Source of the DNA: Escherichia coli
Lineage (GTDB): Bacteria; Pseudomonadota; Gammaproteobacteria; Enterobacterales; Enterobacteriaceae
Assembly (NCBI RefSeq): GCF_001677475.2
Contig: NZ_CP015229.1
Length of the DNA: 64,000 bases
Strand: one strand, 5' to 3'
Under the pieces are notes generated by a model. It saw only the letters and a list, made by a program, of their open reading frames with translations. It did no database searches and was not told the DNA's origin. How positions within the stretch are numbered: the stretch's first letter is position 1; the number at the start of each line of letters is the position of its first letter. The position numbers were made by a program, and so were the translations under genes. This document shows positions 5,135 to 56,438 of the stretch, piece after piece.

Positions 5135-6121
5135 ATGTCTGAACTTATTGCAACTGCCGCTTCCAGCATTAACGCTTTTACTCTGGCAAAGCGTGTCGCC
5201 GCATTTAACGTGCCGGTGCTCATTCAGGGCGAAACCGGCGCGGGCAAAGAATGCGTGGCGAAATATATTCACACCGTAGCCTTTGGTGAAAATGATAACG
5301 CGCCCTATATCGGCGTGAACTGCGCGGCGATCCCGGAAAACATGCTGGAAGCTACATTATTTGGCTACGACAAAGGCGCATTTACCGGCGCAATTGCCAG
5401 CGTGCCAGGCAAAATGGAACTGGCAAATAACGGCACCTTATTGCTCGATGAAATTGGCGATATGCCGCTGGCATTACAGGCCAAAATATTACGCGTATTG
5501 CAGGAACAGCAGGTTGAGCGATTAGGCAGCAACCGACAAATTAAACTCAATTTTCGCCTGATTGCCTGCACCAATAAAAACCTTGAACAGGAAGTCGCTG
5601 CCGGGCGTTTTCGTGAAGATCTCTATTATCGTCTGGCGGTTATTCCTATTACCATGCCGCCGCTGCGTGAACGTTTGAACGATATTATTCCGCTGGCAGA
5701 GTCATTTATAAAAAAATACTCCACGGTGCTGGTGAAAAATATCACCCTTTCGGAATCTACCCGCCGTGCGCTGCTGAATTACCGCTGGCCGGGTAATGTG
5801 CGCCAGCTGGAAAACGCCATTCAGCGGGGAATGATTTTAAATCGCGACGGCGTGATTTACCCGGACGCGTTAGGCCTGCCGGAAAATGACATTGCCGACC
5901 ACAGCGAACTGCAATGGCCCATTCAGCCCTCCGTATCTGTTGCGGAAACCAGCGATTTAGGCCAGGCCGGACGTAGCGCCCAGTATCAATATATCGCCGA
6001 CCTGATGCGTAAATATCAGGGCAACCGCAGCAAAATTGCCGACCTGTTAGGCATTACCCCGCGCGCACTGCGCTATCGACTGGCCTCCATGCGCAAGCAC
6101 GGTATTGAAGTTTTCTCCTGA
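5135..6121 (+). CDS. lafK: Sigma-54-dependent transcriptional activator LafK (AAA+ domain plus C-terminal HTH, no N-terminal receiver domain)
   Basis: Walker A GETGAGKE, GAFTGA motif (KGAFTGA), C-terminal Fis-type HTH. Confidence 0.85.
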   Translation: MSELIATAASSINAFTLAKRVAAFNVPVLIQGETGAGKECVAKYIHTVAFGENDNAPYIGVNCAAIPENMLEATLFGYDKGAFTGAIASVPGKMELANNGTLLLDEIGDMPLALQAKILRVLQEQQVERLGSNRQIKLNFRLIACTNKNLEQEVAAGRFREDLYYRLAVIPITMPPLRERLNDIIPLAESFIKKYSTVLVKNITLSESTRRALLNYRWPGNVRQLENAIQRGMILNRDGVIYPDALGLPENDIADHSELQWPIQPSVSVAETSDLGQAGRSAQYQYIADLMRKYQGNRSKIADLLGITPRALRYRLASMRKHGIEVFS

Positions 6122-48664: not shown

Positions 48665-48740
48665 GCCGATATAGCTCAGTTGGTAGAGCAGCGCATTCGT
48701 AATGCGAAGGTCGTAGGTTCGACTCCTATTATCGGCACCA
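48665..48740 (+). tRNA. thrW: tRNA-Thr (anticodon CGU)
   Basis: gccgatatagctcagttggtagagcagcgcattcgtaatgcgaaggtcgtaggttcgactcctattatcggcacca; cloverleaf with CGT anticodon and CCA end. Confidence 0.95.
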
Positions 48741-48754
48741 TTTAAATCAATAAG

Positions 48755-48960
48755 TTACACATCATTAGTACCTTCCTTATTTCTTGACTGGGACAAATTT
48801 GGGACCGATGGGTTCAGAATCGAGTCTATTTGCCGTGCGTGTTCGGTAAGGTGATTAGGTGCGAGGTGAGCATATCGACGAACCATTTCAAGAGTTTCCC
48901 ATCCTCCCATTTCTGTAAGTGCAAGAAGAGAAACACTGGACTGAACCAGCCTGCTTGCCT
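48755..48960 (-). pseudogene. Tyrosine recombinase/integrase remnant (C-terminal fragment only)
   Basis: ORF encodes ...[36 protein letters not shown] (integrase C-terminus with catalytic Tyr) but lacks upstream catalytic domain; abuts thrW 3' end. Confidence 0.7.
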
Positions 48961-49103
48961 TTGCTATCAAAGTACCTTGAGGACCAGATGATTTCTGGCG
49001 ATATTTACAGCGCGTCCGCAATGAGTTTTTCTCCGTGCCGCCAGTGACGTTCCCCGCTTTTTCAGTGCGGCGATAATATCAGCGGGATGCCAGTCCTGTT
49101 GTG

Positions 49104-49574
49104 TCATACAACCACCTCGCTGATAAATTTTACGCCGTCGGCGGTGCGCAGCCAGCGCGGGGCTTTGAGTCCTTCCATGAAATACCAGACCAGTTCACAC
49201 AACAGCCCGGTCAGGGTTTGTTCCGTTTTTGGTTCCGCCGGGCGTTCCAGCAGAAGCTGGAGTAGTGCGAGGCAGTATTCGCACAAGGAATCTGGTTCGG
49301 AAATAAAGTGCTCTGGTGTGGCGGGAAGGGTATCAACGGTCAGGCTTTCAATCAGATGCGGCGGGATGGGGTCGTGCAGCGTGGGGTGCAATAGCGCAAG
49401 AGCCGCGTGAAGCCGTCCGCAGAGCGCTAGCCGTAGCGCGGGATCGTCGGTTTCGATCAGGGTTTCGGCGAAGCGGGCGCAGTAATCGGCAAGGACAGTA
49501 AAATCCGTGGTGGCATTGAAGGGGGCGGACAGCAGATCGAGTAAATCGCAGTCAGGGGTGAGGGTTGTAGCCAT
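49104..49574 (-). CDS. Hypothetical protein (island-encoded, unknown function)
   Basis: 156 aa from ATG 49572-49574 with upstream aggag RBS; no recognisable motif. Confidence 0.5.
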   Translation of the reverse strand: MATTLTPDCDLLDLLSAPFNATTDFTVLADYCARFAETLIETDDPALRLALCGRLHAALALLHPTLHDPIPPHLIESLTVDTLPATPEHFISEPDSLCEYCLALLQLLLERPAEPKTEQTLTGLLCELVWYFMEGLKAPRWLRTADGVKFISEVVV

Positions 49575-49917
49575 AGGGCGTCTCCTGTAACGGTTTATTA
49601 TGTCCGCCACTAGAGAGGCTAATCTCATGGGGGGCGGAACCGGACGGGGTTAGCCTTACCGGCGTTACAGGAAACCGGCGCGTCTTGCGACGCCCCCGCC
49701 CGGCCCGCCATTGAGGTGTAGCCGAACGCACGACACAAAAAAGACGCTGGTGCGTCAAGTGTCGCCTGTAACGGTTTTCAGGAGGCTAATCCCGACGCCT
49801 GATTTTGCAGGCGCGGGAGAAAGATACTGCGATTGGTCATGAGTGGCAAGGGCTACATCCTGTTTACCGACATCTCACGCAAAAATACCCTGATTATTAA
49901 TAGCGAAAATCAGTTTC

Positions 49918-52900
49918 TTATTTTGGCGGTAGCTTTTTGCGGTTCTTTGCCAATTGGAATCCTTCAGGTAACGGTTTGAATTTATCGCCGCCTTTAGGCC
50001 AGCGTTTTGCCCTGCTCTGAAATGCCCTTAACGAGTCGATATCCAGTGTTGCAGCGATCACAAAGTCATTATCGCCGCCCTTCACACGAGCAATATCACG
50101 CATAAAGGGTTCTTTTGCCGGGGAACGTACGCGACTATCGCCGTATTTTCGGTTATTCACTAAAATGGTATAGGCATGAATATCCAGCGCTGCTGATTCA
50201 ATCAACGATGCAAACGTATCCAGATCTTTATTCCAGCTCAATACCATTAATGCATCGAGCGCGCCCTGAAAACGGATCCTCGCTTTACTATTCTGGAGTT
50301 CAGAGCAAATCATAACGCCAAAATTGACGCCGTGATGAATATATACCGGCTTACGTTGTTTAACATTAAGTGTCGAGTCCCAAGACTTACCATAAGTTGA
50401 AAATAATGCCTCATCTTCACCTACGGCGGGTTCCAGCTTGGGTTGCCATATTTTGACACTCGCTGGATAGCCGAGTCTGTTATCTGAAAGGACAAGTACG
50501 GCCTCACTCTTCAGTTGATTATCGCCTAAGTGGCGGTATTCTGTTCCCGCAATTAGACTGATACCCGCCGAACTCAAACGATCAGCAATACTGTTAACCC
50601 AGCGTAACGGGATTGAAAGCTCGGGGAATAAAACATAATCAGGTTTAGGAGATAGTTTCAATGTTGCATTAACCAGTTCAGAAATCCGCTGGTACCTTGA
50701 ACGGGACAAGTTAGATTTATTGCAGGCCATTTTAGCCCAGTCGTCTTCCTCTGTTTTAATGCTGGTTAGCGCAACGACAATTTTATGTTTCCTGTCAGTG
50801 CCAATATGAATGAATTTCTTAGGCCGAGCTTTTTTTGTCGCTTCATCTGAGTCCTGCTCCGATGCTAGTAACGTCGGTTTGATCCATACACCGCGTAATG
50901 CTTGAGTATATTTTGCCCAAACGGTGGACGGTCTCTCATCTGGTTTTTTGTCGGATGTAGAGGGTAATCCAACACATTCGGGGGCCAGTTCTGATATTTC
51001 AGCGGGAGTTAAAGGACGTGTAGGGAAAATGTAAGGTAGGTAACTTTCGTTCTTACGATTTCCTTTAGCCACTTTTTCCAGTCGGGTATTCTTGGTTGAT
51101 TTCAAAAATAGCTTAATAACGTCAATATCAATAAGCGATGAGTCCCTCATTAATTTCAGTATTTTAACTTCTTTTTTACGATCACGCTGATTAACAAGTT
51201 TTTCTGCCGACTGACTCTTTACGATCTGTTTATAAGGTTCCTTTGCTAAATCAGCTCGAGCTACCAATGGCGCTTTTAAATAAAAATCTGCTGAATCAAA
51301 GCGAAGATCCAGTAAATCCTTTAGATTTGTCAGACTTTGTGAAATATGATTAAAAAATGTATCCGCAAGGCACTCTTCTTTCTTTGAACGTTTATCAAGA
51401 AATAATCTGTCAGGACTGTAATATCGTGTCGCTGCATCAACAAATAGCCAGCTTAATGTGCCTTTTATACAGCGCCAAAGATCATTTACTGCTCGAGTTT
51501 TGCAACCATTTATAGTCACTTCCTTACCTGAAGTAATCACCGATGCCAACAGGTTGATGGACTCGTAAGCTTTAAGTACAATTTTTTCCGCGTGCTGCCA
51601 TTCATTCATACTGATAGCAAAGCCAAGCAGCCTTGGCAGATAACTAAAATGTGCAAATAGATTATCAGCCCTAAGAATATGGTTGTAGGCAAACTGATAA
51701 AACTCTTCCCGCTGTTCTTTCCATTCACTTGGAGACAGATCTCGTGCCAGTGTTTCAACGTAGCGTAATTGCAGTGACCAGCCCAAACGACGAATGGTTA
51801 ATCCATCCGCACGGCGCAGAGTATCGGCATTTTCACCTACACTACCGGCAGCGGAAAGGACTTTAGCTGCGGTGGAGTGTTCCAGTTGATCCGGTGAAGG
51901 CATCAAGCGGTGTTCACTAGAAAGCTCGTAGATCTCCTTTTCGATACTGTCGAGCAGATCTATTCCTGCCCTCCCTTGAAGCACGAAAAGTTTTTGCTTA
52001 TCGGATTGTAACTGGATGGTGGTCTTACCCTGGAAATGCTCGCCCTGCTGTATTTGCCATATTTGTTTTTTCTCGTTTTTCAGATAAACGCAATCATTGC
52101 CAAGCCTATCTTGCAGCAATAACATAAATTCGTGATTATTAGTAATTTTACCTGTATCGCGTATTACAAGGAACATATCATCGACATAACGACCGTAGTG
52201 AATTGGCGACAGTTTTTCAATGACTAATTTATCCCAATGGTGTAGCAATATATTGGAAATGATCCGACTGGCTGTTAATCCAATGACCAGACCACCATTA
52301 ATAACAGGTGTTTTGTACGCTATTTTTTTTCCAAATGCCGCTGCGCCGTCAGACCAGTGCTTTAAGAATACAGCTAACTGTGCAGTAAACGCTTTTTCAT
52401 GCTCAGTCAGTTTTATGTTTAGTGTGTTATAGAGATCATCAGAGGTTATAGCCAGTGGATCAATAAAATGATAGTAACTTTTTAAATCCAGTGAGGCGGC
52501 GATAATGTCACGATCTTTTTCCAACTCGTCACGTATAGCTTTTAAGCCATCACCACGCCATTTTTGGTAGGGCTGGAAATAGGGGCTAAAAGAACCCACG
52601 GCACTGATATGGAATGGATTATCCTGCTCATTGCTAAATAATTCATCATTACGAATACGTTTTAGCCGCGCGCCATAACAACAGTTGTCTAAGCTGGCAT
52701 CAAATTTATGCCCGACCATATTAATCCATAGTGCAGAGATAATGTGACTATCAACCGGGAAGTCACCAATAATACGAAACTCTGGTATCAGATCAAAATT
52801 ATTAAATAAATGGTCGGCTGCTCGTTTAGGATTAGAAAAGTGGACGTGTCCATTTTGGAATTCATGTTTTTTCTTTGTGGTTAATTTTTTCGGTAACAAA

Positions 52901-53127
52901 CGAAATTTGCCAATCAACTTCTTATTGCTACTGAATCCATCTTCGCTCTGCAAAATATCTAAGAGTTCTTGCAGGTTTTCAATTAATTCCTGCTCATACT
53001 CGGCAAATTTGATAGCAACAGGAAATGTATTCTCAAAGAAGCTATCGGCTTTGGCTTTCCGGTAAGCGACCAGAAGGTCTTCAATCGTCAGATCATCCCA
53101 GCCAGTGAAAGTTGCCTGATATGTCAT
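49918..53127 (-). CDS. Reverse transcriptase-nitrilase fusion protein (UG/Abi-type defence-associated RT architecture)
   Basis: 1069 aa; RT motifs LDLKSYYHFIDP, GGLVIGLTASRIISNILL, YGRYVDDMF; C-terminal CN-hydrolase signatures FPELSIP and GVMICSELQN; low-GC gene. Confidence 0.75.
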   Translation of the reverse strand: MTYQATFTGWDDLTIEDLLVAYRKAKADSFFENTFPVAIKFAEYEQELIENLQELLDILQSEDGFSSNKKLIGKFRLLPKKLTTKKKHEFQNGHVHFSNPKRAADHLFNNFDLIPEFRIIGDFPVDSHIISALWINMVGHKFDASLDNCCYGARLKRIRNDELFSNEQDNPFHISAVGSFSPYFQPYQKWRGDGLKAIRDELEKDRDIIAASLDLKSYYHFIDPLAITSDDLYNTLNIKLTEHEKAFTAQLAVFLKHWSDGAAAFGKKIAYKTPVINGGLVIGLTASRIISNILLHHWDKLVIEKLSPIHYGRYVDDMFLVIRDTGKITNNHEFMLLLQDRLGNDCVYLKNEKKQIWQIQQGEHFQGKTTIQLQSDKQKLFVLQGRAGIDLLDSIEKEIYELSSEHRLMPSPDQLEHSTAAKVLSAAGSVGENADTLRRADGLTIRRLGWSLQLRYVETLARDLSPSEWKEQREEFYQFAYNHILRADNLFAHFSYLPRLLGFAISMNEWQHAEKIVLKAYESINLLASVITSGKEVTINGCKTRAVNDLWRCIKGTLSWLFVDAATRYYSPDRLFLDKRSKKEECLADTFFNHISQSLTNLKDLLDLRFDSADFYLKAPLVARADLAKEPYKQIVKSQSAEKLVNQRDRKKEVKILKLMRDSSLIDIDVIKLFLKSTKNTRLEKVAKGNRKNESYLPYIFPTRPLTPAEISELAPECVGLPSTSDKKPDERPSTVWAKYTQALRGVWIKPTLLASEQDSDEATKKARPKKFIHIGTDRKHKIVVALTSIKTEEDDWAKMACNKSNLSRSRYQRISELVNATLKLSPKPDYVLFPELSIPLRWVNSIADRLSSAGISLIAGTEYRHLGDNQLKSEAVLVLSDNRLGYPASVKIWQPKLEPAVGEDEALFSTYGKSWDSTLNVKQRKPVYIHHGVNFGVMICSELQNSKARIRFQGALDALMVLSWNKDLDTFASLIESAALDIHAYTILVNNRKYGDSRVRSPAKEPFMRDIARVKGGDNDFVIAATLDIDSLRAFQSRAKRWPKGGDKFKPLPEGFQLAKNRKKLPPK

Positions 53128-53330
53128 GCGTTATCGTCCTTAGATTAAAGTCTGTACAGAATTAGCCAGCCGTTTCATGCCCGAAGGAGGTGCTCTTGAC
53201 ACCAGTAATCCATCAGTGAGGCTGGCAATAATTTTGATTTGTATCCATGTTACACGCTCCCCGCAACCAGTCCGAGCATATATTTGTCACATTTTTCCCG
53301 AAAGTGATTAAGTTTGAATTTTTTGTTTAA

Positions 53331-53349
53331 TGTCGATTTTTAGTCGACA
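53331..53349. promoter_or_regulatory. Inverted repeat tgtcga-N7-tcgaca in divergent promoter region (candidate operator)
   Basis: Palindrome ~75 bp upstream of AbiEi-like gene; AbiEi antitoxins autoregulate via promoter inverted repeats. Confidence 0.35.
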
Positions 53350-53422
53350 AAATGAGGAATAAGTAAATTATTTCTTGCTGTGGCGTATCCCTGAACCTAC
53401 ACTGGTTTAAATATTTGTACTA

Positions 53423-54226
53423 ATGTCTATTCAGGGGCGACATTTGCCAAATTATCTAAACTGGCTGATGCAGAATACGCTACCCGGTCAGGTGCTGCTC
53501 CAGTCATGGCTTACCCGCAACGGCGTAGATCGTAAGCTCTCTTACCTCTATGTCCAGAATGGCTGGCTCAGGCGGATCGCTCACGGCGTATACTGCCGGA
53601 CGGGTCGTGAACCGGACTGGGTGGACGCGGTTTACTGCCTGCAAACACAGTGGGAAAAGCCAGTACGGGTGGCGGGGCTAACCAGCCTTGCGCTTCAGGG
53701 CCATGCGCACTATACCGAACCGGGTAAGCCGCAAATCTGGCTCGCGCTTCCGGCTTACGTCAAACTGCCGGGATGGTTTGCTGCCTTCGAACAATCTGCA
53801 ACATTTATCACGCTGTATACATCGGGCCTTACCGTTGATGTCACGTCATTTACTACGGAACTGAAAATTGGCGACCGGCAGTTAGCAGGCAGTGCCCCGG
53901 AACTGGCCGCGTATGAGATCGCCTGCGGCGTTCCTTCGTTGATATCGTTCGAACATGCCGATGCTCTGTTTCAGGGGATGAATCTTCTCAGCCCGCGTAA
54001 ATTGCAGGCGTTACTCTGCGCCAGTCATTCGGTTAAAACCAACCGGGTGATGCTTTACCTTGCCCGGCGTAATGGACACCCTTATTTTCAGTATATTGAT
54101 CAAAGCGGTATAGAAACAGGTACGGGAAAGCGGCAAATCATACCCGGCGGCTGGCTGGAGCCGGATTATCAAATTACTGTTCCACGCGAATTTAAACCGG
54201 AAGGAGTCGAAGATGGATCTGCGTGA
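53423..54226 (+). CDS. AbiEi-like antitoxin / transcriptional regulator (type IV TA)
   Basis: 267 aa; N-terminal AbiEi-type wHTH-like region (LTRNGVDRKLSYLYVQNGWLRRIAHGVYCRTG); overlaps downstream NTase gene by 14 bp. Confidence 0.6.
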   Translation: MSIQGRHLPNYLNWLMQNTLPGQVLLQSWLTRNGVDRKLSYLYVQNGWLRRIAHGVYCRTGREPDWVDAVYCLQTQWEKPVRVAGLTSLALQGHAHYTEPGKPQIWLALPAYVKLPGWFAAFEQSATFITLYTSGLTVDVTSFTTELKIGDRQLAGSAPELAAYEIACGVPSLISFEHADALFQGMNLLSPRKLQALLCASHSVKTNRVMLYLARRNGHPYFQYIDQSGIETGTGKRQIIPGGWLEPDYQITVPREFKPEGVEDGSA

Positions 54227-55133
54227 TAGCTATACCCGGCAGGTCAAACTGTTGATGGCCGCTCTGCCGCATGTGGCGAAGGAGTCCTGTTTCGCGTTGA
54301 AAGGCGGCACGGCAATCAATTTGTTTGTGCAGGATTTTCCCCGTCTGTCGGTGGATATCGATCTGGCGTATAAGACTTTTGCGGATCGCGATACCGATTT
54401 GACGGCGATCAACGACGCTTTGAAGAGAATTACTGCATCGCTGAACAGTAAACCGGGGATTACCGCGATTCGGCAGGAAAATAAAACGGATGAAAAGCGC
54501 ATCATTGTGAATACGGCTGATGCCCAGATTAAGATCGAGGTTAGTCCGGTCTGGCGTGGGCTGTTGTTGCCTCCGGCAGAAATGTCGGTGTGCGAACGTG
54601 TGGAAATGGAGTATGGCTTCACCACTATGAGTGTCGTTTCGCTGGCGGATCTTTATGGCGGTAAAATCTGCGCAGCGCTTGATCGTCAGCACCCGCGCGA
54701 TCTGTTTGATGTGCTGAATATGCTGGAGAAACCGGGACTGATGCGGGAGATCTTTGACGGTTTTCTTTGTTATCTGGCAGGCCATCCCCGCCCCATTGCC
54801 GAGTTGCTGGCCCCAAACTGGGATACAGAGCGGATCACGACGCTGTATGCCCAGGAATTTTCGGGGATGACTCAGCAGGAAACGTCGCTGGAATCGCTGC
54901 TGTCAGTAACGACTTTGCTGCCGCAGGCGTTGAAGTCACATCTTACGGATCTGGATCGCGAGTTCTTGCTCAGTTTTAAGCAAAACAGCCCTGACTGGTC
55001 GCGGTATCGCTATCCTGAAATTCAGCATCTTCCGGCTATTCGCTGGAAGCAACGCAATCTGGCGGTGCTTAAAGATAAAAATCCGGCGAAGTATGTGGCG
55101 GCGGTGAATAAGCTAGAGAGGGTGCTGGAGTAA
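54213..55133 (+). CDS. AbiEii-like nucleotidyltransferase toxin (DUF1814-type)
   Basis: 306 aa; NTase motif LKGGTAINLF ... RLSVDIDLAY (hGG...DhD). Confidence 0.65.
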   Translation: MDLRDSYTRQVKLLMAALPHVAKESCFALKGGTAINLFVQDFPRLSVDIDLAYKTFADRDTDLTAINDALKRITASLNSKPGITAIRQENKTDEKRIIVNTADAQIKIEVSPVWRGLLLPPAEMSVCERVEMEYGFTTMSVVSLADLYGGKICAALDRQHPRDLFDVLNMLEKPGLMREIFDGFLCYLAGHPRPIAELLAPNWDTERITTLYAQEFSGMTQQETSLESLLSVTTLLPQALKSHLTDLDREFLLSFKQNSPDWSRYRYPEIQHLPAIRWKQRNLAVLKDKNPAKYVAAVNKLERVLE

Positions 55134-55538
55134 TATTCTTAGCGCTGTTCAGGGACTCTGAATTGGGCCATGATGCTTTGGTTATATGAATAACTTCGTG
55201 GCCATAACTCAAACATATTCATTTAATTCAATACATAGCACCATCGAGTAAGAGATCGCTGAGTCATTAGACGATCTCTGCTCGTGGAAATACGAAACTA
55301 TCTCTTTCCAAAGCTGATCTGAATAACATTATCTGGAGCATCATTATTAGACCTGATGATCTCATGCTCAATAAAATCCCCCCATTTCAAAAAAAGATCC
55401 CGTAATTTTTCCGCCTGCTGCCCGACCTGATAAGTTCTGATTAATCTGTCTTTCGGAACATGATTCAACAGAAGTTCTATAAGCCGTTCTGGCGCATCCA
55501 GATACTCAGCACAGCCTGTAGAGTGCAGGTGCAGACAT

Positions 55539-56438
55539 TTAAGCCAATTGCTGCCGCCATTCCTTGACGTGGTCAATCAGGGCGCGGAGCTTTGGTGCAA
55601 TATTGCGACGCTGTGGGAAATACAGATAGAAGCCCGGAAATTGTGGAAGAAAGTCATCAAGCAGCGATACAAGCTTACCGCTTTCAATATATGGCCTGAA
55701 CGTTTCCTGAGTGGCAATTGTTATTCCTCCGCCGGCAAGAGCCAGCCTCAACATCAGACGCAGATCATTCGTCGTAATCTGCGGTTCAATCGCAAGGTCG
55801 AAAGCTCTACCGTTTTCTTCAAATGGCCAGCGATAAGGAGCAACCTCCGGGGACTGACGCCAGCCGATACACTTATGATTCACAAGTTCACGCGGGTGAA
55901 CAGGTGTGCTGTTGGCTGCGAGATAGGAGGGAGAGGCAACGACCATTTCACGCTGCCTGGCGGTAAGGGGAACAGCAATCATGTCTTTTTCAATGACCTC
56001 TCCGAGCCTTACGCCAGCATCGTAACCTGCGGCAACGATATCGAATTCCTCATCCGTGACAACAATATCAAGCGTAACGGCTGGATTGGCAGCTGCAAAC
56101 GAAGCGATTAGCGGACCTGAAAGAAATTCTTCTGCTATCGACGTCACCGCGATTCTGAGATGTCCACGTGGTACATGGTCAGAAACCATCTCTTCGAACG
56201 CTGCCTCAATACCGGATAAAGGTAATGACAACGATTTATGCAGCCGTTCTCCCGCTTCCGTCAAATTAACTGAGCGCGTGGTCCGCATTACAAGCATTGT
56301 CCCGAATGCATCTTCAAGGCGTCTTATTCCCTGACTGACCGCTGAACGGGTAACGCCCAGTCGTGCGGCGGCTTTACTGAAATTACTCTCTTCTGCTACC
56401 GCGATAAAAATGGGTAAAAGATTAAGATCGATTTTCAT
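55539..56438 (-). CDS. LysR-family transcriptional regulator
   Basis: 299 aa; N-terminal HTH (FSKAAARLGVTRSAVSQGIRRLE) and LysR substrate-binding domain. Confidence 0.9.
   Translation of the reverse strand: MKIDLNLLPIFIAVAEESNFSKAAARLGVTRSAVSQGIRRLEDAFGTMLVMRTTRSVNLTEAGERLHKSLSLPLSGIEAAFEEMVSDHVPRGHLRIAVTSIAEEFLSGPLIASFAAANPAVTLDIVVTDEEFDIVAAGYDAGVRLGEVIEKDMIAVPLTARQREMVVASPSYLAANSTPVHPRELVNHKCIGWRQSPEVAPYRWPFEENGRAFDLAIEPQITTNDLRLMLRLALAGGGITIATQETFRPYIESGKLVSLLDDFLPQFPGFYLYFPQRRNIAPKLRALIDHVKEWRQQLA

Follow-up and report, generated by a model that had tools for sequence, protein, structure and literature searches.

We analysed a stretch of 64,000 nucleotides of the Escherichia coli chromosome (contig NZ_CP015229.1 of assembly GCF_001677475.2), hereafter the window, whose minus strand carries a large gene that joins a reverse transcriptase (RT) to a predicted carbon-nitrogen hydrolase of the nitrilase superfamily. 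The open reading frame (ORF) of this RT-nitrilase occupies positions 49918-53127, from an ATG start to a TAA stop, and encodes 1069 amino acids, exactly as proposed in a first-pass annotation made from the letters of the window; an AAGGA Shine-Dalgarno sequence lies about 8 nt 5' of the start codon. The GC content of the gene is 41.8% versus 52.8% for the window. The backbone is that of an Escherichia chromosome (frsA-crl-phoE-proBA), followed by a tRNA-Thr(CGT) gene at 48665-48740. Between the tRNA and the RT-nitrilase, the RefSeq annotations of E. coli 042 and F2_81 place integrase and helix-turn-helix (HTH) pseudogene remnants at the equivalent position. On its other side the gene adjoins, and is transcribed divergently from, an AbiE pair formed by an AbiEi antitoxin (53423-54226; PADLOC E 7.6e-79) and an AbiEii nucleotidyltransferase toxin (54213-55133; PADLOC E 7.8e-117) that overlap by 14 nt; it is an AbiE system in its own right and not part of the RT system. 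The low GC content, the neighbouring tRNA-Thr, the integrase remnant, the AbiE-like pair and the defence-island-like setting described by the first-pass annotation are all borne out.

The RT-nitrilase is an E. coli member of an already described and validated antiphage family, and not a new system. The PADLOC model RT_UG5-nitrilase (PDLC03780) covers the protein nearly from end to end (residues 1-1068 against model positions 9-901 of 907; E=0, 1031.7 bits). Lower scores are obtained with the other UG5-nitrilase model (PDLC02995; 185.3 bits, residues 18-411 only), RTasNitrilase (145 bits, E 7.8e-43, residues 783-1058), RT_UG5_small (132.6 bits) and Drt1a (PDLC03745, 91.3 bits, residues 151-430 only; PDLC02171, 33.7 bits). 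The protein has the defining parts of UG5-large, namely a UG5 RT, a fused C-terminal nitrilase, a length of about 1000 or more amino acids with a helical extension, an intact YxDD motif and the motif A aspartate. UG5-large proteins are class 3 UG/Abi RTs and the sister group of UG1 (Mestre 2022, PMC9226505). The DRT11 protein of S. meliloti RMO17 (WP_040120558.1, from pSymA) scores similarly on PDLC03780 (1015.7 bits), and residues 13-1067 of the window protein are collinear with it (30% identity, E 1e-144). Judged by these matches, the window gene is a bona fide UG5-large member of the DRT11-like kind that has no transmembrane (TM) partner. The first-pass annotation was right to place the gene among the UG/Abi defence-associated RTs, and the lineage, whose novelty it had left to a database comparison, proves to be known at the family level: a catalogue of 2022 lists UG5-large, experiments in 2022 and 2025 validated it, and its biochemistry was described in 2026 (PMC9226505, PMC9122126, bioRxiv 10.64898/2025.12.16.694600, PMC13275509). 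The statement that the mechanism is essentially unknown is superseded by the published work on UG5-large defence and on DRT1/DRT5L biochemistry (PMC9122126, PMC13275509, bioRxiv 10.64898/2025.12.16.694600).

Three other identities were rejected. The gene had been called DRT type 1-like, but the UG1 model Drt1a gives only a partial match (91.3 bits, compared with 1031.7 bits over the full length for UG5), and with 1069 amino acids the protein is shorter than the 1200-1300 amino acids of DRT type 1. The E101 type, an RT-nitrilase with a TM protein, is not consistent with the lack of an adjacent TM gene and the partial match to PDLC02995. For a retron, the NCBIfam model retron_St85_RT reaches 33.1 bits against a cut-off of 235; the NCBIfam scan of the protein yields sub-threshold RT matches only, and the Rfam scan of the locus finds no retron RNA family. 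In RefSeq the gene is named 'RNA-directed DNA polymerase' or 'hypothetical protein', the latter in strain 042. The family comprises 853 cluster representatives at E<=1e-30 and includes a dense clade of 1064-1080-aa proteins with 69-81% identity in marine and enteric Gammaproteobacteria.

The domains were identified by family-specific hidden Markov models (HMMs), by a profile of an alignment of 42 family sequences with 27-81% identity to the query (alignment A1) compared with PDB sequences, and by the predicted fold. All motifs quoted in the first-pass annotation lie at the expected places: LDLKSYYHFIDP at residues 213-224, GGLVIGLTASRIISNILL at 278-295 and YGRYVDDMF at 311-319 in the RT, and FPELSIP at 834-840 and GVMICSELQN at 937-946 in the putative nitrilase. 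The catalytic residues are invariant in the 42 homologues, as are all of D214, G279, N292, Y311, R313, Y314, D316, D317, E836, K897, E904 and C941. The parts of the gene are as follows.

49918-53127, minus strand: complete coding sequence of the UG5-large RT-nitrilase, 1069 amino acids and TAA, by the ORF list, PADLOC and collinearity with DRT11.
51898-53127, minus strand: N-terminal extension and RT (fingers, palm and a thumb-like part), residues 1-410, by invariant columns, the A1 profile and Foldseek.
52486-52488, minus strand: RT motif A aspartate D214, invariant in A1.
Residues G279 to N292, minus strand: RT motif B, both residues invariant in A1.
52177-52188, minus strand: RT motif C, YVDD 314-317, with Y314, D316 and D317 invariant in A1.
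51916-51918, minus strand: Ser404, part of the motif (S/A/T)-S-E-x-R-x-x-P that directly follows the thumb-like helix, invariant (42/42).
Residues 411-441: linker with the low-confidence loop 428-440 of the AlphaFold2 model.
50818-51804, minus strand: central alpha-helical domain that joins the RT to the nitrilase, residues 442-770, by the secondary structure and confidence of the AlphaFold2 model.
50008-50817, minus strand: predicted nitrilase (C-N hydrolase) domain, residues 771-1040, by the invariant tetrad, Foldseek and RTasNitrilase.
50620-50622, 50437-50439, 50416-50418 and 50305-50307, minus strand: nitrilase tetrad E836, K897, E904 and C941, respectively, all invariant.
49921-50007, minus strand: basic C-terminal tail, residues 1041-1069, with the motif K1051-x-x-P1054-x-G1056-F1057 at 49957-49977.

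The HMM check proposed by the first-pass annotation gave a divided result. The Pfam-A scan finds neither RVT_1 nor CN_hydrolase in the window protein and returns only noise matches to NMT and FBA_2; the UG5-nitrilase family model matches it with E=0. RVT_1 is matched at E<=0.001 by 26 of the 42 homologues, the window protein not among them, and CN_hydrolase (PF00795) by none of the 42 at this threshold and by two at E<=0.1. This failure of the generic profiles is a problem of sensitivity and no evidence against the RT or nitrilase domains. Because of this blind spot, pipelines that use Pfam alone leave the protein 'hypothetical', as in strain 042. When compared with PDB sequences, the A1 profile matches DRT1 (9YFD; E 5e-25) in the RT palm and in the nitrilase, and further matches Drt3a, retron RTs, an RT of a diversity-generating retroelement (DGR), DRT2, UG15/DRT4 and group II intron RTs. 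With the window protein as a single query, phmmer finds 9YFD at E 9.6e-7 over the last ~120 residues only.

The clade is well populated, with hundreds of sequences of at least about 70% identity, and the structural model is therefore confident. The AlphaFold2 model built on A1 has a mean predicted local distance difference test (pLDDT) of 87.6 and a predicted template modelling score (pTM) of 0.90; confidence is low only at residues 160-167 and 428-440. Both an RT fold and an amidase/nitrilase fold are seen in the model, and the fusion of an RT to a nitrilase domain is thus recovered by family HMMs, by the A1 profile against PDB, and by the model with Foldseek. The Foldseek search against PDB pairs the C-terminal domain with amidases, nitrilases, formamidases and carbamoylases (probability 1.00, E to 2.5e-8, target template modelling scores 0.62-0.68) and the N-terminal half with AbiA, a DGR RT, DRT9 and UG15; in a library extending to April 2026 it does not return 9YFD. 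Membership in the nitrilase superfamily is supported by the model at the fold level only, with no match to PF00795. Like the amidases of P. horikoshii (6YPA), Nesterenkonia (4IZT) and G. pallidus (2PLQ), the C-terminal domain is predicted to have an alpha-beta-beta-alpha fold, and the distance from K897 to E904 fits the spacing of the Glu-Lys-Glu-Cys tetrad of canonical amidases. In contrast to these enzymes, with which it has 10-15% identity, the window domain is fused to an RT and escapes the Pfam CN_hydrolase profile. C941 aligns with the catalytic C1116 of DRT1, and K897 and C941 align with K833 and C876 of DRT11. The helical domain (residues 442-770) is the least conserved region of the protein, with a mean column consensus of 0.34. 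Such a helical extension is common to class 3 UG/Abi RTs (PMC9226505), and DRT1 has an 'alpha-helical repeat domain' (Neville 2026).

Two features outside the catalytic sites are of mechanistic interest. In the C-terminal tail, A1 shows no variation at K1051 and P1054 and at least 90% conservation at G1056. The motif aligns with K1219-T-Q-P-A-G-F1225 of DRT1, a segment that forms a domain-swapped lid over the neighbouring nitrilase site (Neville 2026, PMC13275509); K1219A, A1223F and tail deletions in DRT1 cut defence by up to four orders of magnitude (PMC13275509). The tail motif of the window protein, which includes the residue essential in DRT1, is predicted by this alignment to be an inter-protomer lid over the nitrilase site. 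The second feature is Ser404, which aligns with the second serine of 'NRSSAFRLP' in DRT5L, a protein that makes covalent protein-DNA adducts (PMC13275509). DRT1 primes on S402, located 77 residues after its YVDD (PMC13275509); Ser404 lies 87 residues after YVDD in the window protein. By its invariance and position, Ser404 is a candidate priming serine in UG5.

Among the known systems, DRT11 is similar to the window protein in its PADLOC model and score, its full-length collinearity, its YVDD, its nitrilase lysine and cysteine, and its C-terminal FKPxPxGF tail. Like the window gene, it stands alone with no TM partner, and it lies in a variable defence region. Defence by DRT11 in S. meliloti needs the RT aspartates and the nitrilase cysteine, requires neither a TM protein nor a noncoding RNA (ncRNA), and is abortive-infection-like, depending on the multiplicity of infection (bioRxiv 10.64898/2025.12.16.694600). 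The differences are the 30% identity, a window protein that is 64 amino acids longer, mainly in its helical middle, a gammaproteobacterial chromosome instead of a rhizobial megaplasmid, and the association of relatives in the window clade with type I restriction-modification (R-M) arrays. AbiE adjacency was considered as a trait shared with DRT11 and dropped, as no AbiE was found among the four larger DRT11-flanking ORFs scanned.

UG5-large was validated as a defence system in E. coli E101 (Rousset 2022, PMC9122126). The E101 RT-nitrilase of Rousset 2022 and DRT5L of Neville 2026 have an identical N-terminus and are the same protein. Both it and the window protein are UG5-large RT-nitrilase fusions in mobile-element hotspots of E. 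coli; both halves are homologous (E 2e-20 and 1e-16), and both proteins have a Ser-Ser motif after the RT domain and a P-x-GF tail. However, BLASTP identity is 24-30%, and the top PADLOC model of E101/DRT5L is PDLC02995, at 2038.7 bits over the full length versus 185.3 bits for the window protein. Purified DRT5L makes covalent template-free DNA (PMC13275509). The E101 gene resides in the P4 psu-int hotspot and is followed by a TM gene, reportedly needed; the window locus has no TM gene.

DRT1 (UG1; 9YFD) has the same class 3 architecture of RT, helical domain and nitrilase. Its palm and nitrilase are homologous to those of the window family at the profile level, with aligned catalytic cysteine and lid motif. 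It belongs to another UG group and is longer (1229 versus 1069 amino acids), and outside the palm and the last ~230 residues no sequence similarity to the window family can be detected. DRT1, DRT5S and DRT5L all make protein-primed, template-free DNA adducts, and in DRT1 the adducts control the nitrilase (PMC13275509). A dependence of phage protection on the RT site as well as the nitrilase site has been demonstrated only for DRT11 and, in the sister group, for DRT1 (PMC13275509). By this homology, DRT1 is the likely mechanistic template for the window protein.

Neither a partner gene nor a dedicated RNA was found at the locus. The gaps flanking the gene, 160 nt downstream and 295 nt upstream, contain no TM or other partner ORF of at least 20 amino acids, and the RefSeq annotations of 042 and F2_81 show no adjacent TM gene. 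TM genes accompany 31 of 299 UG5-large genes, and the TM-less form is the majority architecture (Mestre 2022, PMC9226505). Directly downstream of the RT stop codon and on the same strand, Rfam identifies a C4 antisense RNA (49627-49715; 73.7 bits), the Hfq-binding small RNA isrK (49737-49814; 68 bits) and a c4-a1b1 target (49775-49827; 43.8 bits, with a gathering threshold of 46.7). These RNAs and an overlapping 'ash family' ORF make up a P4/P1-type immunity region that stems from a decayed P4-like element and does not belong to the RT; the RNAs are not found in homologous loci of other genera.

We compared the flanks of 11 contexts in other genera, nine of which hold close relatives; the close homologues (68-76% identity to the window protein) come from Salmonella, Yersinia, Citrobacter, Pleionea, Alloalcanivorax, Gilvimarinus, Marinobacter and Vibrio. 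In the close homologues a gap of 5-56 nt separates the upstream gene from the RT start codon, or the two genes share 4 nt. Across the 11 contexts the RT gene either lacks an upstream neighbour or has one without homology to those elsewhere, and downstream flanks are unrelated across genera, the Yersinia/Citrobacter pair excepted. These short gaps or overlaps and unrelated flanks leave no room for a conserved ncRNA and indicate no conserved partner. No TM ORF is present in the close-clade loci examined. A conserved upstream ATPase partner, suggested by 4-nt overlaps in three loci (L007, L010 and L014), was dropped because the three proteins are mutually non-homologous.

The upstream genes form a recurrent arrangement. 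Nine non-E. coli loci of the close clade were compared (L004-L006, L008-L011, L015 and L016, with the RT from position 6001 or 8001 onward). In eight of them, the tightly packed, co-directional genes hsdR-hsdM-hsdS are followed by a variable module and then by the RT-nitrilase as the last gene. The variable module is Kiwa KwaA/KwaB, as identified by PADLOC, in five loci (three of Salmonella, one each of Yersinia and Citrobacter) and in Pleionea. Elsewhere it is a PDC-S06 AAA_13 ATPase (Alloalcanivorax), a 588-aa ATPase (Gilvimarinus) or a 337-aa protein with Fic (Marinobacter). HsdM is 79-94% identical among six loci and HsdS only 32-53%. Pleionea has a non-orthologous type I system in the same place (HsdM 26-29%), with an RT 86-92% identical to the other marine RTs. 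In Marinobacter sp. BSs20148 (L016, 11861-19222) the hsdRMS-Fic-RT-nitrilase array adjoins a complete Tn7-like tnsA-B-C-D-E module, which suggests that this array is transposon cargo. We saw no reference to a link with R-M or Kiwa genes in Mestre 2022. A trace of such an array persists at the E. coli locus.

53133-53189, minus strand: 57-nt remnant of the 3' end of a kwaB-like gene with its spacer, directly 5' of the RT start codon.

The KwaB-like 3' end and 12-nt spacer of the Salmonella, Yersinia and Citrobacter loci match this segment with 79-82% identity. It is the mark left when the E. coli copy was severed from a Kiwa-RT array, just 5' of the ribosome-binding site.

Among 5426 complete E. 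coli genomes, 260 (4.8%) carry the gene, one of them being the enteroaggregative reference strain 042. An IS5-family element interrupts it in a single carrier, and the other 259 have it at full length. The 261 blastn matches all fall in the 95-99% identity band, with 98.3-98.6% for those listed, and blastn detects no diverged paralogues in the complete E. coli genomes. The top matches span both flanks, and the thrW/AbiE context is thus shared. In comparison with 042 and F2_81, the segment 40826-60000 of the window has ~97.0-97.5% identity in housekeeping genes and island alike; because core and island are equally diverged, the island looks vertically inherited since those lineages split. By this level of identity, the window comes from a fairly divergent Escherichia lineage. 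The RT gene differs from the 042 and F2_81 alleles by 31 synonymous and 14-16 non-synonymous substitutions, and the ratio of non-synonymous to synonymous polymorphism (pN/pS) is 0.13-0.15. The RT-nitrilase gene is under purifying selection.

Some further features of the island were noted. Integrase fragments at 48755-49021 and 55298-55576, both on the minus strand, flank the RT/AbiE block on both sides. No att-type direct repeat of the tRNA-Thr 3' end occurs within 10 kb, and hence the att boundaries of the island are eroded. A 174-aa ORF (49104-49628, minus strand) between the ash/C4 region and the HTH/integrase remnants corresponds to the conserved hypothetical protein WP_000201185.1 of 042; this ORF and a 68-aa ORF, both downstream of the RT-nitrilase, have no PADLOC or NCBIfam match. 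The segment 55135-58065, with an integrase remnant, a LysR regulator and a short-chain dehydrogenase/reductase (SDR) oxidoreductase, is present in the window and F2_81 and missing from 042. The region between the RT-nitrilase and abiEi has the following place.

53128-53422: divergent intergenic region of 295 bp, delimited by the sequence, which must hold the RT promoter.

A consensus scan of this region (at least 9/12 positions) yields a single plus-strand sigma-70 match at 53344-53371. An inverted repeat at ~53331-53350 (GTCGAC-N5-GTCGAC-like, TTGTCGAC-TAAAAA-TCGACA) overlaps this promoter-like site and could be an AbiEi autoregulatory operator.

Taken together, the window gene is probably a self-contained abortive-infection system made of a single gene, a UG5-large fusion of the DRT11 type with a DRT1/DRT11-like mechanism. 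A single-gene antiphage system, as put forward by the first-pass annotation, is the most likely assignment by the PADLOC family match, the collinearity with DRT11, the conserved catalytic residues and the fold. The model that we propose borrows the defence phenotype, protein priming, the role of Ser404 as primer, control by filaments, the trigger and the abortive outcome from the relatives of the protein. The RT domain, with D214 and YVDD 314-317, would make short semi-random single-stranded DNA (ssDNA) with neither an RNA template nor a primer. Priming on its own side chain, possibly Ser404, would leave the DNA covalently bound to the protein, and the DNA adducts would cause the nitrilase domains to assemble into tetramers and filaments. 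The tail of the neighbouring protomer (K1051-x-x-P-x-G-F) would close over the E836-K897-E904-C941 site and keep it dormant. A factor of the phage replication stage may disturb this dormant state; in DRT1 the trigger factor is an ssDNA helicase (Neville 2026, PMC13275509). The freed nitrilase would then hydrolyse an essential C-N metabolite, so that the infected cell no longer supports phage growth.

The model could fail if the RT-nitrilase is one component of a system that needs a partner, such as a membrane effector as in E101/DRT1b, the AbiE pair or the R-M/Kiwa genes, in which case the orphan gene would be inactive or dependent on genes elsewhere. The E101 UG5-large system is reported to need its TM gene, but a TM ORF is absent here and in the close-clade loci examined, DRT11 works alone, and TM genes occur with only a small minority of UG5-large genes. 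The kwaB remnant kept by the E. coli copy, and the position of the RT at the end of hsdRMS arrays in eight of nine loci, with 4-nt overlaps or gaps of 5-56 nt that suggest co-transcription, would point to partners among the array genes. The linkage to R-M may reflect hitch-hiking in islands or a functional tie. We favour an autonomous module because the middle modules (Kiwa, the PDC-S06 ATPase, the 588-aa ATPase and Fic) are mutually non-homologous, more distant relatives stand alone, and the E. coli orphan has survived, still intact and under purifying selection. Dependence on a partner is thus unlikely. About as unlikely is the narrower idea that the RT-nitrilase in this clade is functionally tied to type I R-M and is not a free-standing module. 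If that were true, it would be an abortive backup triggered once restriction has been circumvented, for instance on anti-restriction or DNA-mimic activity, and the copy at thrW in E. coli would have left its R-M context as an orphan and turned autonomous.

The gene could also be a silent relic. In that case it would look intact but go unexpressed and have no present function, as leftover cargo of the degraded integrative element at thrW. The surrounding element is indeed decayed (integrase and HTH pseudogenes, no att repeat found), the ancestral upstream operon has been lost and no strong promoter consensus was found. Against this, the ORF of 3.2 kb is unbroken in all but one of the 260 carrier genomes, its pN/pS remains 0.13-0.15 across lineages ~2.6% diverged in core genes too, every catalytic and lid residue is retained and a good Shine-Dalgarno sequence is present, all of which make a relic quite improbable. 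A retron- or DRT2-like mode of action, in which the RT copies an ncRNA encoded at the locus into a defined cDNA that is the functional product, is very improbable. There is weak similarity at the RT level to retron and DRT2/DRT3 RTs, but the retron St85 RT model stays far below its cut-off (33 bits compared with 235). The structured C4 and isrK RNAs lie just downstream on the same strand, but they are P4/P1-type immunity RNAs of the decayed element and absent from homologous loci; moreover, the flanking sequences on both sides differ between genera, and the RT start is directly preceded or overlapped by upstream genes. For DRT11, RNA sequencing revealed no ncRNA, and deletion of the upstream region had no effect (bioRxiv 10.64898/2025.12.16.694600).

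Several observations weigh against a self-contained system with the proposed mechanism. Identity between the window protein and the UG5-large proteins with experimental data is only 24-30%. The E101 system reportedly depends on its TM partner and was active at room temperature only (PMC9226505; PMC9122126), so a lone RT-nitrilase is not guaranteed to be active. The filament/lid model has been demonstrated only for DRT1 (PMC13275509). Expression is not assured: the gene was excised from an operon-like array 57 nt 5' of its ATG, and the consensus scan of 53128-53422 gives no minus-strand sigma-70 match of at least 9/12. As for the priming residue, no alignment of Ser404 with S402 of DRT1 was obtained, since the HMM alignment to DRT1 stops at residue 371; residues 382-478 of DRT1 are unresolved in 9YFD. 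Neville et al. (PMC13275509) state that S402 lacks conservation in class 3 DRTs other than DRT1, and Ser404 lies at a helix end in the AlphaFold2 model and not in a disordered loop. We found no paper testing this clade, in a search that did not extend to Gao et al. 2020 (PMC7985843) or the supplements of Mestre 2022.

As a discovery the gene matters little, because its architecture, family, defence role and much of the biochemistry are published and PADLOC models recognise it. New here are two small observations on the movement of such modules: the linkage to type I R-M arrays, and the scar of kwaB that records the excision of the E. coli copy. Native to E. coli and carried by about 5% of its complete genomes, the gene represents the DRT11-like type that lacks a TM partner. 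It would be a convenient system in which to look for the nitrilase substrate, the phage trigger and the UG5 priming residue, with Ser404 as a specific candidate.

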